Source: a virus. From it: 18,917 nt of DNA. Below the pieces are notes generated by a model. The model worked only from the letters and a program-made list of their open reading frames with translations. It did not search any database and was not told where the DNA came from. The position numbers and the translations under genes were made by a program. The stretch lies in UHGV virus genome UHGV-0096894; one strand, written 5' to 3'. This document shows, in pieces, positions 7,978 through 13,353 of the stretch (position 1 is the first letter of the stretch; each line of letters starts with the position of its first letter).

Positions 7978-8053
<76 letters not shown>

Positions 8054-8056
8054 TAT

Positions 8057-8131
<75 letters not shown>

Positions 8132-9969: not shown

Positions 9970-10347
9970 ATGTCGGGTAAATTCAGATTCAGCCGCCGGA
10001 GCGAGAAAAATCTGGAGGGTGTCAAACCACAGCTGGTTGCTGTAGTTCGCCGTGCCCTTGAACTGACGGAGGTTGATTTTGGTATTACGGAAGGTCTGCG
10101 CACGAAAGAGCGCCAGAAACAACTGGTTGCGGAAGGAAAAAGTCAGACTATGAACAGCCGTCACCTGACAGGTGATGCAGTGGATGTTGTGGCCTACGTT
10201 GGCAGCCAGGTGTCATGGGACTGGCCTCTGTACGAGAAAATCGCACAGGCATTTAAGCAGGCTGGTGCAGAGCTGGGAACCGCCATCGAATGGGGCGGGG
10301 ACTGGAAAACACTGAAAGACGGACCACATTTCCAGCTGAAGCGCTGA
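9970..10347 (+). CDS. Endolysin, M15-family peptidase (L-alanyl-D-glutamate peptidase type)
   Basis: Product MSGKFRFSRRSEKNLEGV...SRHLTGDAVDVVAY...WGGDW...GPHFQL has the zinc-ligand pattern (H..G.A.D ... H) of VanY/M15 phage endolysins such as T5 Lys. The track starts at GTG 9964; ATG 9970 is preferred. Confidence 0.8.
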   Translation: MSGKFRFSRRSEKNLEGVKPQLVAVVRRALELTEVDFGITEGLRTKERQKQLVAEGKSQTMNSRHLTGDAVDVVAYVGSQVSWDWPLYEKIAQAFKQAGAELGTAIEWGGDWKTLKDGPHFQLKR

Positions 10348-10362
10348 CAGCTGGGGCTGAAT

Positions 10363-10830
10363 ATGAGCAGAGTTACTGTGATTATCTCCCCTCTGGTTTT
10401 CTGCATCATTGTCTGCCTGTCATTGGCTGTTAATCATTACCGTAATAATGCCATTACCTACAAAGCGCAGCGCGACAAAAATGCCGGAGAACTGAAACTG
10501 GCGAACGTGACAATTACTGACATGCATCAGCTCCAGCGTGAGGCTGATGCACTCGATGCTAAATACACGAAGGAGTTAGCTGATGCGAAAGCTGAAAATG
10601 ATGCTCTTCGGCGCAAGCTTGATAATGGTGGCAGGGTGCTCGTCAAAGGAAAATGCCCTGTGCCATCCTCAGCCGAAACCTCCAGCGCCTCCGGCATGGG
10701 CAATGATGCCACCGTCGAACTCTCTCCAGTTGCTGGACGAAACGTTCTCGGTATCCGGGACGAAATTATCCGCGACCAAACAGCACTGAGAACGCTTCAG
10801 GAATACATCAAGACGCAATGCCTGAATTAA
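10363..10830 (+). CDS. Rz-type i-spanin (inner-membrane spanin subunit)
   Basis: N-terminal TM helix ([18 protein letters not shown]), then a long coiled-coil-like periplasmic region ([44 protein letters not shown]). Directly follows the endolysin gene and contains an embedded +1-frame lipoprotein gene. Confidence 0.8.
10583..10789 (+). CDS. Rz1-type o-spanin lipoprotein, embedded in the +1 frame of Rz
   Basis: AAGGAG RBS 5 nt before ATG at 10583. Product [21 protein letters not shown]... has a lipoprotein signal with lipobox VAGC, followed by a Pro-rich segment ([16 protein letters not shown]). Entirely nested within Rz in another frame. Confidence 0.7.
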
Positions 10831-10871
10831 TCCCTCTGTATCAAAAACGAGCTCAATTTGTTGGATAGTGA

Positions 10872-11183
10872 ATGAAAATTTATATTTCCGGGCCAATGAC
10901 GGGATATGAGAACTTTAATCGTGACGCCTTTAATAAAGAGGCAGATCGTTTGTCACGACATGGTCACTCTGTCTTGAATCCAGCCACTTTGCCTAATGGT
11001 CTGACACAACGTGAATACATGGATATTTGCTTTGCAATGCTTCGTTGTGCTGATGCTATTTTGATGCTTCCTGGCTGGAAAGCGTCTGCTGGAGCAACTG
11101 CTGAGTATCATTACGCATACAAGATGGAGATGCCGGTATTCACTACGCTGAATTACCCGCCAGTTTGTTCCTCTGTAGCATAA
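10872..11183 (+). CDS. DUF4406-like protein (nucleoside 2-deoxyribosyltransferase-like fold)
   Basis: MKIYISGPMTGYENFNRDAFNKEADRLSRHGHSVLNPA...CADAILMLPGWKASAGATAE matches the pattern I recall for DUF4406 (KIY.SGPMTG ... NP ... D.I..LPGW..S.GA..E). Confidence 0.65.
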   Translation: MKIYISGPMTGYENFNRDAFNKEADRLSRHGHSVLNPATLPNGLTQREYMDICFAMLRCADAILMLPGWKASAGATAEYHYAYKMEMPVFTTLNYPPVCSSVA

Positions 11184-11528
11184 AATCTCTTTGTTTCTCG
11201 TGTGCGACCGCGGTCGCACGCTAAATTCCGCGCTGCATCGTCGCCGTATTCCCGCATTAACCATGACCGCAGCCCGATGGGGAACTCCTTCTGCGCGAGT
11301 GTGCGGGAATAATCAAAAACGATGCACACCGGGTTTTTACCGCGCTAATGATTCGCGGGTTTATCCCGGTGCGATGGTGGAAGAAACCGGAAGCTGTATT
11401 ACAGAAAGTGCTACTACTGTATCCCGATGCGATGTATGTAATGTGAGTCAGATAATGGCACAGGATGTGGTGATGTGGCAGTCTGGAACACAGGATATAT
11501 TGTCAGAATAAGACCCGTAGGAATAAAA

Positions 11529-11855
11529 ATGAAAAGACGCCTTTTACTACTTTTTCTGTTATCTGTCCTGGCAGTGGGATGCTCGCAGCAAAAAGCTGAT
11601 GAGCCCCGGCAATTAGTGACGGTGTATCCACGATATCCGGAATATGCTGCAGCAAATTATATCAAGGGGCTGGTTGAGGTTAAGTTCGATATTGGTGCTG
11701 ATGGGACTGTGACACGGATCGTTTTTCTCCGCTCAGAGCCTCATAATTTGTTTCGTGATGAAGTGGTGAAGGCCATGGCGAAATGGCGATTTGAAAAGAA
11801 TCGCCCCTGTCAGGGAGTGAAGAGACAATTTATCTTTACGCCGTCACGTCCCTGA
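11529..11855 (+). CDS. Lipoprotein with TonB C-terminal-like domain (108 aa)
   Basis: ATG at 11529 with aggaataaaa upstream (the track starts at 11475). Signal peptide with lipobox LAVGC (MKRRLLLLFLLSVLAVGCSQ). Mature part VYPRYPEYAAANYIKGLVEVKFDIGADGTVTRIVFLRSEPHNLFRDEVVKAMAKWRFE fits the TonB_C pattern (YP..A...G.V.V.F.I..DG.V....V..S.P...F...V..A...WRF). Confidence 0.7.
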   Translation: MKRRLLLLFLLSVLAVGCSQQKADEPRQLVTVYPRYPEYAAANYIKGLVEVKFDIGADGTVTRIVFLRSEPHNLFRDEVVKAMAKWRFEKNRPCQGVKRQFIFTPSRP

Positions 11856-11977
11856 TGCTTCCAGGTAGAGAGGGGCTGTAAGCAGGAGAAAAATGAAAGA
11901 GCCAGCGGTTATATTTTTGTCATGGCTGACGAGGAATGATGGAAGAAGGCGTTGTATGCCACACAACGCCTCACTGT

Positions 11978-12157
11978 TCATTTCTTCTTTTTCTCTGGTG
12001 GAACCCGATGAATAAGAGTTGCACTGGTTTCCGATGAGATGGCGATATACTCGGGCAAAGTATGCTGGCAGTTTTCCAACTGGTCAAAAATACCTGCTCT
12101 CGTCTGTTGCAATGCCTGCAGCATGCGGCGGCAATGCGCCTTGCTTTTACTAACCAT
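11978..12157 (-). CDS. Hypothetical small protein (59 aa)
   Basis: Minus-strand ATG with strong GAGGAAGGAAAG SD directly upstream. Product MVSKSKAHCRRMLQALQQTRAGIFDQLENCQHTLPEYIAISSETSATLIHRVPPEKKKK. It is the C-terminal portion of track ORF 11978..12331, whose N-terminal part overlaps the next ORF in another frame. Confidence 0.3.
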   Translation of the reverse strand: MVSKSKAHCRRMLQALQQTRAGIFDQLENCQHTLPEYIAISSETSATLIHRVPPEKKKK

Positions 12158-12218
12158 CTTTCCTTCCTCTATCAGTCGCTGCGTGAACTCATCATGGAAT
12201 ACCAGGTAAATGCGGATG

Positions 12219-12470
12219 TTATCGGTTTTGGCTACGCAGCATAGTACAAAACGGACAGGTGCATCCCGGGACGGGGGAGGCGTCACATGTCCCTGTGATG
12301 GTTGTTCCGGGTAATGTACTGTGTGGGGCATAAAAATGTCCGATAATTTTACTTTCTACCGCAGTTAGTTGATTCGTTGGTCCTGGTAGCACATTGGGCG
12401 AGGATTTAAATGCCAGGCAACTGAAGGATGATGTCGCAAGGGAGATAGCGAGAATATTTCTGATTTTCAT
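12219..12470 (-). CDS. Hypothetical secreted Cys-rich small protein (83 aa)
   Basis: Minus-strand internal ATG (rc of 12468-12470) of track ORF 12219..12539. Product MKIRNILAISLATSSFSCLAFKSS... has a plausible Sec signal peptide followed by a Cys-containing mature region (CDASPVPGCTCPFC). No recognisable family. Confidence 0.35.
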   Translation of the reverse strand: MKIRNILAISLATSSFSCLAFKSSPNVLPGPTNQLTAVESKIIGHFYAPHSTLPGTTITGTCDASPVPGCTCPFCTMLRSQNR

Positions 12471-12618
12471 TTGATGATGCCTCTGTGTGAAATGACGGTA
12501 AACGACGCACTTGTGCCGGCACATAATAGCAAGCACCATAATAGATCAGATTCGATCCTTGCTGTAAGTGATAATTATTCTCGTTTTCGGGTCCTTTCCG
12601 TCGATCCAACAGGTTACG

Positions 12619-12630
12619 GGGCGGCGACCT
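12619..12630. other. cosN cohesive-end site of lambda-type cos (cosQ upstream, cosB downstream to about 12800)
   Basis: ...CAGGTTACG|GGGCGGCGACCT|CGCGGGTTTTCGC... matches the junction of the lambda right and left ends as I recall them, with the 12-nt cohesive end GGGCGGCGACCT 189 nt before the Nu1 start. cosB contains a 14-bp-arm inverted repeat (12729-12742 / 12768-12781). Confidence 0.7.
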
Positions 12631-12807
12631 CGCGGGTTTTCGCTATTTATGAAAATTTTCCGGTTTAAGGCGTTTCCGTTCTTCTTCGTCATAACTTAAT
12701 GTTTTTATTTAAAATACCCTCTGAAAAGAAAGGAAACGACAGGTGCTGAAAGCGAGCTTTTTGGCCTCTGTCGTTTCCTTTTTCTGTTTTTGTCCGTGGA
12801 ATGAACA

Positions 12808-13327
12808 ATGGAAGTCAACAAAAAGCAGCTGGCTGACATTTTCGGTGCGAGTATCCGTACCATTCAGAACTGGCAGGAACAGGGAATGCCCGTTCTGCGA
12901 GGCGGTGGCAAGGGTAATGAGGTGCTTTATGACTCTGCCGCCGTCATAAAATGGTATGCCGAAAGGGATGCTGAAATTGAGAACGAAAAGCTGCGCCGGG
13001 AGGTTGAAGAACTGCGGCAGGCCAGCGAGACAGATCTCCAGCCAGGGACTATTGAGTACGAACGCCATCGACTTACGCGTGCGCAGGCCGACGCACAGGA
13101 GCTGAAAAATGCCAGAGACTCCGCTGAAGTGGTGGAAACCGCATTCTGTACTTTCGTGCTGTCGCGGATCGCAGGTGAAATTGCCAGTATTCTCGACGGG
13201 ATCCCCCTGTCGGTGCAGCGGCGTTTTCCGGAACTGGAAAACCGACATGTTGATTTCCTGAAACGGGATATCATCAAAGCCATGAACAAAGCAGCCGCGC
13301 TGGATGAACTGATACCGGGGTTGCTGA

Positions 13328-13353
<26 letters not shown>
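12808..13353 (+). CDS. nu1: Terminase small subunit Nu1 (lambda-type)
   Basis: 181 aa product MEVNKKQLADIFGASIRTIQNWQEQGMPVLRGGGKGNEVLYDSAAVIKWYAERDAEIENEKLRREVEELRQ... matches phage lambda Nu1 as I recall it. Sits 189 nt from cosN and overlaps A by 26 nt, as in lambda. Confidence 0.95.

Follow-up and report, generated by a model that had tools for sequence, protein, structure and literature searches.

The window analyzed here, an 18,917-nucleotide stretch of the UHGV virus genome UHGV-0096894, has the gene content of the late region of a lambdoid (pro)phage. Between its lysis block and its packaging genes lies a gene whose product consists of a lipoprotein signal peptide, a short tether and the C-terminal domain (CTD) of TonB (Table 1). 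A sequence-only reading of the window had singled out this TonB-CTD lipoprotein gene and suggested that its product competes with host TonB at outer membrane receptors, and thereby excludes TonB-dependent phages and colicins. The analysis below concerns the anatomy, expression and relatives of this gene, and weighs what its product might do.

Table 1. Features of the window and of related loci. Positions are those of the window, except where a label beginning with L marks a locus in another record.
Feature	Location	Strand	Remarks
TonB-CTD lipoprotein coding sequence	11529..11855	+	Complete, 108 aa; ATG start
Shine-Dalgarno sequence AGGA	11519..11522	+	6 nt 5' of the ATG; read from sequence; ribosome-binding site annotated in phage 21
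Lipoprotein signal peptide MKRRLLLLFLLSVLAVGC, residues 1-18	11529..11582	+	Read from sequence
Short tether, residues 19-29 (SQQKADEPRQL)	11583..11615	+	Low model confidence
TonB C-terminal domain, residues 30-105	11616..11843	+	Topology a1-b1-b2-a2-b3; protein ends TPSRP
Non-coding region upstream of the gene	11230..11528	+	99% identical to Perceval; candidate own promoter
Rz i-spanin	10363..10830	+	Rz1 o-spanin embedded at 10583-10789; spanin pair complete
DUF4406 / nucleoside 2-deoxyribosyltransferase-like gene	10872..11183	+	Occupies bor position; relatives have bor/iss on the minus strand
Lambda Nu1-type small terminase	12808..13353	+	First of the packaging and head genes
hok/sok, then helix-turn-helix (HTH) and IrrE-like genes, DUF968, RusA, Q antiterminator			First block in window order
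DNA methylase and two tRNAs			After the Q antiterminator block
Two holins, M15 endolysin, Rz with embedded Rz1			Lysis block, after the tRNAs
DUF4406 gene, TonB-CTD lipoprotein gene, small open reading frames (ORFs)			Between lysis block and Nu1
Nu1, terminase A, portal, C protease/scaffold gene, D decoration gene			End of window order
sitABCD (TonB-independent Fe/Mn importer)	Phage 21, L104:9968-13417; ST131 prophage, L106:8273-11722		On the same element as the gene and iss
Serratia triad (TonB_C gene, immunity gene, colicin)	L110:6001-8510; L119:5001-7447; L121:4001-6498
IncF plasmid TonB-family lipoprotein WP_170933330.1	L122:3956-8282; L126; L128; L129		Exc2 gene on same strand, 49 bp downstream in 3/4
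Pantoea metagenome-assembled genome colicin, 360 aa	L093:2208-3290		N-terminal DGTGWSSERG TolB box; likely immunity ORF at 1885-2187

The N-terminus of the protein, MKRRLLLLFLLSVLAVGC followed by SQQ, has the basic n-region (MKRR), hydrophobic core (LLLLFLLSVL) and lipobox (AVGC) of a lipoprotein signal peptide. The lipobox cysteine, Cys18 (codon 11580-11582), is kept in both E. coli clades of the gene and in 13/13 homologues examined from Raoultella, Klebsiella, Erwinia and Pantoea. The fusion of a lipobox signal peptide to the domain, as had been proposed, is confirmed. With serine at +2, the +2 rule predicts sorting of the lipoprotein to the outer membrane. Fifteen residues separate the lipid-anchored cysteine from the PxYP motif of the domain. 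The latter is recognized by the Pfam model TonB_C (PF03544; residues 33-99, E = 7.3e-13, 49.2 bits against a cut-off of 24.6) and by TIGR01352, with a score of 47.4 against a cut-off of 27.1. The closest solved protein is E. coli TonB: residues 24-103 align ungapped with TonB 151-230 at E ~1e-14 and 32 of 80 positions (40%) are identical. Equivalents of TonB P161, Y163, P164, G174, F180, G186, F202, W213 and F230 are kept, Y215 is replaced by phenylalanine, and the last four residues of the TonB C-terminus are missing.

An AlphaFold2 (AF2) model based on a 24-sequence alignment has a mean predicted local distance difference test score (pLDDT) of 85.7, with values above 94 across residues 30-105; it supersedes an earlier run on 8 close sequences, for which the pLDDT was 62. 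When this model was compared with the PDB using Foldseek, the top matches were all TonB-CTDs, at root-mean-square deviations (rmsd) of 0.9-1.6 Å. They include the free TonB-CTD 1u07 (1.1 Å over 83 aligned columns), BtuB-bound TonB in 2gsk_B (1.1 Å over 81 columns; template modelling (TM) score 0.94) and FhuA-bound TonB in 2grx_C (0.9 Å over 73 columns), whereas TolA domain III structures were only distant matches, with TM scores of about 0.35-0.4. Strand beta3 (residues 94-103) is present and well modelled. The sequence-only reading had named a structure prediction unlike the TonB-CTD as grounds for giving up its proposal; the profile scores, the identity to TonB and a model 0.9-1.1 Å from receptor-bound TonB instead bear out the fold, well past anything attributable to chance.

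The protein is a member of the TonB_C family but is not a bona fide energy transducer TonB, because three properties of a transducer are absent. Its N-terminus is a cleavable lipoprotein signal peptide and not a TonB-type membrane anchor, only ~11 residues lie between Cys18 and the start of the domain in place of a proline-rich, periplasm-spanning spacer, and the NCBIfam TonB equivalog models match with their C-terminal parts only, at 45-69 bits against cut-offs of 265-448. The lack of an energy-transducing N-terminus had been part of the earlier proposal and stands.

The gene is not a new sequence: it is already annotated, very common, and that of the classical phage 21. A 100% identical protein is encoded by CPT_21_73 of phage 21, annotated as 'TonB C-terminal domain protein', and by ev017, Perceval (PERCE_65, 'TonB fragment') and three PhiR phages; its RefSeq identity is WP_000830178.1, 'TonB family protein'. 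A 72% variant is found in Stx1a phages, JLK-2012 and Lys8385Vzw, and a 41% relative in a Klebsiella phage. The gene is present in 1617 of 5426 complete E. coli genomes (~30%), 1202 of them at ≥99% identity and 392 at ~74%, and at least 80% of its length is covered in 1612 of the 5426. IMG/VR contains 220 relatives. Full-text literature searches found no functional study of the TonB-CTD lipoprotein.

Between the two E. coli clades the gene has a dN/dS of 0.13, with dS saturated (~1.4), and signal peptide and domain are alike in this respect. The identical Perceval gene, LF82_160, is listed as a moron whose transcription in LF82 lysogens is 8-fold over the prophage background (Misson et al. 2023, PMC9928086). 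Its log2 expression lies between 5 and 6.6 in every condition, and its neighbours on either side, Rz and the small terminase, have values of ~2.3-4.3 (PMC9928086, S1 table). On these published data it is transcribed in lysogens apart from the lytic programme, as expected of a moron, and together with the purifying selection this makes it a functional gene and not a remnant. Database names such as 'partial tonB-like' and 'TonB fragment' would suit a decaying, functionless piece of a captured tonB. This explanation is hardly credible and is close to refuted already: the protein has acquired its own lipoprotein signal peptide, dN/dS is 0.13 at a dS of ~1.4, full-length copies exist in roughly 1600 genomes and in several genera, and transcription is autonomous.

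From position 11230 to beyond 12300 the window is 99.0% identical to Perceval. The 299 bp preceding the start codon are part of this stretch, and the window probably shares the promoter of the Perceval gene, within 11230..11528. A scan for consensus promoters and terminators found no promoter on the + strand upstream of the gene. The only conserved promoter candidate is GATAAT at 11451-11456, which is kept in both clades and lacks a good -35 element. A putative Fur box near this hexamer was rejected, with ~8/19 matches by eye. The upstream element matches no Rfam family, and its predicted RNA fold (z = -1.8) is unconvincing. Within it, the non-coding stretch 11230-11400 is ~95% identical between the phage clades, while the TonB-CTD coding sequences are only 73% identical there; the stretch occurs in 3839 of the 5426 E. 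coli genomes, exceeding the number of gene carriers, and nearly always lacks annotation. Possible explanations are a promoter or other regulatory function and a junction at which lambdoid modules have recombined.

The expression data also bear on a possible role in lysis. An outer membrane lipoprotein could aid the holin, endolysin and spanin cassette, for example by engaging outer membrane proteins, both in phages and in phage-like modules for bacteriocin release. The site directly after the lysis cassette (directly before it in Pantoea and Erwinia) recurs in unrelated phage backbones, one family member has a holin/lysis set nearby on a bacteriocin plasmid, and the gene is oriented with the late operon. 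In addition, the protein matches PHROG 1267 end to end (E = 5e-43), and this PHROG is labelled 'Rz-like spanin'. The label looks like a mis-annotation, because the family is one of TonB_C lipoproteins and the window has its own Rz/Rz1, and it was most likely derived from position and lipobox alone. Since that Rz/Rz1 pair is complete, the TonB-CTD lipoprotein is not the phage's spanin; it shows no similarity to o-spanins such as Rz1, its TonB_C domain is globular, and its gene is active in lysogens in which Rz and the flanking lysis genes are silent. Homologues are also found in chromosomal and plasmid contexts that are not phage-like. We therefore give a lysis or release function little credence.

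A second role suggested by phage context is lysogenic conversion, in which the protein would retune host metal uptake or transporter signalling and might act with the TonB-independent importer SitABCD and with Iss in the phage-21-like prophages of extraintestinal pathogenic E. coli (ExPEC). All seven phage records with the identical gene (7/7) carry sitABCD; in sequence type 131 (ST131) the phage-21-like prophage integrated at icd has the gene between iss and nohD, with sitABCD at its far end; and in LF82 the sit genes and the TonB-CTD gene are both expressed morons. However, sit is missing from the GE3 prophage of E. coli, whose TonB-CTD gene is identical, and from the clade 2 phages and the Klebsiella phage. 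Because of the GE3 prophage, and because shared ancestry confounds the 7/7 co-occurrence, the idea that sitABCD is a compensating partner was rejected. Under macrophage-mimicking conditions LF82_160 is unchanged (log2 fold change 0.26, not significant; PMC9928086). We consider a function in metal uptake improbable.

The wider family was gathered by an exhaustive HMMER search and a profile search. Its proteins, 107-133 aa long, come from Escherichia, Klebsiella, Raoultella, Enterobacter, Salmonella, Pantoea, Erwinia, Rahnella and Serratia, and all consist of a signal peptide and TonB_C, nothing more. A lipobox is present in 18 of 30 members, with Asp at +2 in none, and the remaining 12 have an ordinary signal peptide, so that all 30 are periplasmic and none has a TonB-type anchor. 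In prophages whose backbones are unrelated, the gene comes directly after the lysis cassette and ahead of the terminase genes. This is so in the window, in phage 21, in JLK-2012 and the Klebsiella phage, in E. coli GE3 and Rahnella, and in a Salmonella plasmid-prophage; the Pantoea and Erwinia copies directly precede the holins.

Other family members adjoin bacteriocin genes. In Serratia, a TonB_C gene is followed after 68 bp by an immunity gene of the colicin E1 type, and both are convergent on a pore-forming colicin with a ColA_N domain. This triad was found in three replicon contexts (chromosome, plasmid-like contig and conjugative plasmid) with the 68-bp spacing constant, and the TonB_C gene may be an unrecognized accessory of the colicin system. 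At that chromosomal site a SIR2 gene can stand in for the colicin downstream of the TonB_C gene; because the latter then persists without the colicin, an integration hot spot may account for some of the linkage. Among five IncF plasmids sampled from Klebsiella and Enterobacter, four have the lipoprotein form with an Exc2-family lipoprotein after it, beside a cloacin immunity gene. In one of them, pFF979_2, an intact rRNase bacteriocin with a cloacin-like N-terminus is encoded downstream of a phage-type holin/lysis set. A Pantoea lipoprotein homologue lies 1.7 kb from a pore-forming colicin, beside an integrase fragment. Two motifs of the colicins next to the Serratia and Pantoea genes, 'DSMTV' and 'GTMTI', were considered as TonB boxes and rejected, since a ColA_N domain or a DGTGWSSE TolB box is present.

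For the protein in the window we tentatively favour a TonB-docking decoy at the outer membrane that damps TonB-dependent import. Held by its lipid anchor at the periplasmic face of the outer membrane, the secreted protein would reproduce the domain with which TonB docks on receptors, and nothing else of TonB. Lysogens would make it from a promoter that belongs to the gene, and the Q-dependent late transcript would presumably supply it late in the lytic cycle as well. Its exposed beta3 edge, as used by TonB, would pair with the TonB-box strand of FhuA, FepA, BtuB and Cir. With no link to the ExbB-ExbD motor, the boxes of transporters, or of incoming TonB-dependent ligands, would be occupied and not pulled, so that TonB-dependent import would be damped. 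From this we infer, along with the outer membrane location and box binding, a phenotype in which carriers are partly resistant to TonB-dependent phages, colicins and microcins, at a cost in siderophore and B12 uptake.

Several published observations make this mechanism plausible, and the support gained from our own analysis is circumstantial. Strand beta3 of TonB pairs with the TonB box (PMC11658791). As cited in PMC9841981, the periplasmic domain of TonB, when overproduced in the laboratory, inhibits iron import via TonB-dependent transporters (Howard 2001), and a TonB-box pentapeptide lowers colicin killing and phi80 infection (Tuckman 1992). Llp of phage T5 is a precedent for a small phage lipoprotein that jams a TonB-dependent transporter, FhuA, from the periplasm (PMC9586334). 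A function that protects lysogens requires transcription in lysogens, and the autonomous transcription of the Perceval gene thus counts in favour of the decoy, as do the dN/dS of 0.13, the closeness of the model to receptor-bound TonB and the company that family members keep with bacteriocin-immunity and Exc2 exclusion modules on plasmids.

Other results weigh against the decoy. The equivalents of TonB R158, N159, Q160 and R166 are T, V, Y and Y, and vary across the family. The first three form the segment proximal to the TonB box and R166 is a contact with FhuA, so that the protein may not be specific for canonical TonB boxes. Transporters greatly outnumber TonB and a decoy must therefore be abundant, and the lysogen transcript is only moderate. 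Some family members occupy ordinary chromosomal settings (in Raoultella, in Erwinia and in a cellulose-synthesis bcs operon), and PADLOC returned no defence-system model match for the lipoprotein. The neighbouring bacteriocins carry ColA_N (Serratia), a DGTGWSSE TolB box (Pantoea) or the cloacin-like N-terminus (Klebsiella) and probably use group A, Tol-dependent import, which means that the neighbourhoods are not specific evidence for TonB. It is because of the contact residues, the moderate transcript set against numerous transporters, and these apparently Tol-dependent neighbours that we hold the decoy only tentatively.

The Tol-dependent appearance of the bacteriocins motivates the main rival. 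Here too the protein would be a decoy that captures a beta-strand, but its ligand would be the unstructured translocation segment of bacteriocins or phage proteins entering the periplasm, and not the TonB box of a transporter. Such capture would provide immunity at the level of entry, complementing classical immunity proteins, and may extend to ligands of TolA domain III, which shares the fold. This fits the movement of the Serratia TonB_C/immunity pair with its colicin between replicons, the pairing with Exc2 next to cloacin immunity on IncF plasmids, the proximity of the Pantoea homologue to a pore-former with a TolB box, the lack of conservation of TonB contact side chains, and the weak fold matches to TolA domain III. 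Those same TolA matches are poor and the sequence is clearly TonB-like (40% identical to E. coli TonB); the Serratia gene persists at its site without the colicin, so that a hot spot may explain part of the association; and the phage copies have no bacteriocin nearby. On balance we regard capture of bacteriocin segments as unlikely for this protein. More broadly, secreted proteins made up of a TonB-CTD alone could be a widespread, unrecognized class of mobile-element 'entry immunity' factors in Enterobacterales, acting as dominant-negative TonB (or TolA-like) docking mimics that capture the beta-strand 'boxes' which phages and bacteriocins, or their receptors, have to offer to the import motors of the host. 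Carriers would be protected in this way, the genes would travel with lysis-packaging junctions of prophages and with bacteriocin-immunity or exclusion modules, and the copy in ~30% of E. coli genomes, ST131 among them, would be one example; as a generalization this is doubtful, if conceivable.

Among the remaining features of the window, the combination of modules with the DUF4406 gene in the bor position appears uncommon, because no complete E. coli genome covers >74% of positions 10300-12900. At the left end of the window an Rfam match to the sok antitoxin RNA (822-996; 112 bits, E = 3e-25) indicates the hok/sok toxin-antitoxin locus. An HTH protein and an IrrE/ImmA-type M78 peptidase form a pair at 1378-2230 with weak PADLOC matches to CapH/CapP, regulators of CBASS-type defence. 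tRNA-Thr (TGT) and tRNA-Gly (TCC) are located at 7978-8131, between the DNA methylase and lysis genes; the counterpart region of phage 21, downstream of Q, has tRNA-Asn and tRNA-Thr.

If the TonB-docking decoy is correct, one small protein would provide generic exclusion of all TonB-dependent invaders, including T1, phi80 and H8-type phages, group B colicins and several microcins, and would possibly also blunt siderophore-antibiotic conjugates of the cefiderocol type that enter via TonB-dependent transporters. Because ~30% of complete E. coli genomes carry the gene, and because it resides beside iss and sitABCD in the ExPEC phage-21-like icd prophage, it could then influence the host range of therapeutic phages, the colicin- and microcin-based rivalry of gut bacteria, and the entry of Trojan-horse antibiotics. 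What has long been annotated as a 'TonB fragment' in a classical lambdoid phage would gain a function, and a natural TonB mimic would join, as an exclusion or immunity factor, the mobile-element lipoproteins that disable outer membrane import.

Comparison with known systems places the protein between several of them. It has the fold and topology of the E. coli TonB-CTD (1u07 and 1xx3; 2gsk with BtuB, 2grx with FhuA), with the YP motif and aromatic core in common, but it is anchored through a lipobox and has no N-terminal anchor, proline-rich spacer or ExbBD partner. Bor and Iss are, like it, lysogen-expressed outer membrane lipoproteins encoded by morons of the Rz-to-cos region. The sequence-only reading had assigned the gene to the Bor slot; the site does lie between Rz and cos, but bor is not replaced, since bor/iss, unrelated in sequence and on the opposite strand, adjoins the TonB-CTD gene in phage 21, Perceval and the ST131 prophages. 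Llp of T5 and Cor of phi80/N15 are small phage proteins as well; Llp inactivates FhuA from inside (PMC9586334) and Cor inactivates FhuA (PMC11436027). No sequence or fold relationship was found between these and the TonB-CTD lipoprotein, for which PHROG and Pfam scans yielded only TonB_C, PHROG 1267 and weak spanin matches, and no PHROG labelled as exclusion. The action of Llp is confined to one receptor, FhuA, whose plug it binds, and works by reverse allostery; unlike such receptor-specific blockers, a mimic of the TonB-CTD would be directed at the TonB box that transporters have in common, and many of them could be hit at once. The engineered TonB fragments of Howard et al. (2001, J Bacteriol 183:5885, as cited in PMC9841981) are likewise exported periplasmic domains without the energy-coupling part, and they inhibit by the mechanism proposed here. 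They are soluble, overproduced laboratory constructs of host TonB, whereas the phage protein is natural, diverged, lipid-anchored and borne on mobile elements, with an activity that is only proposed. By analogy, the TonB-CTD lipoprotein would resemble Llp and Cor in outcome and the engineered TonB fragments in mechanism.

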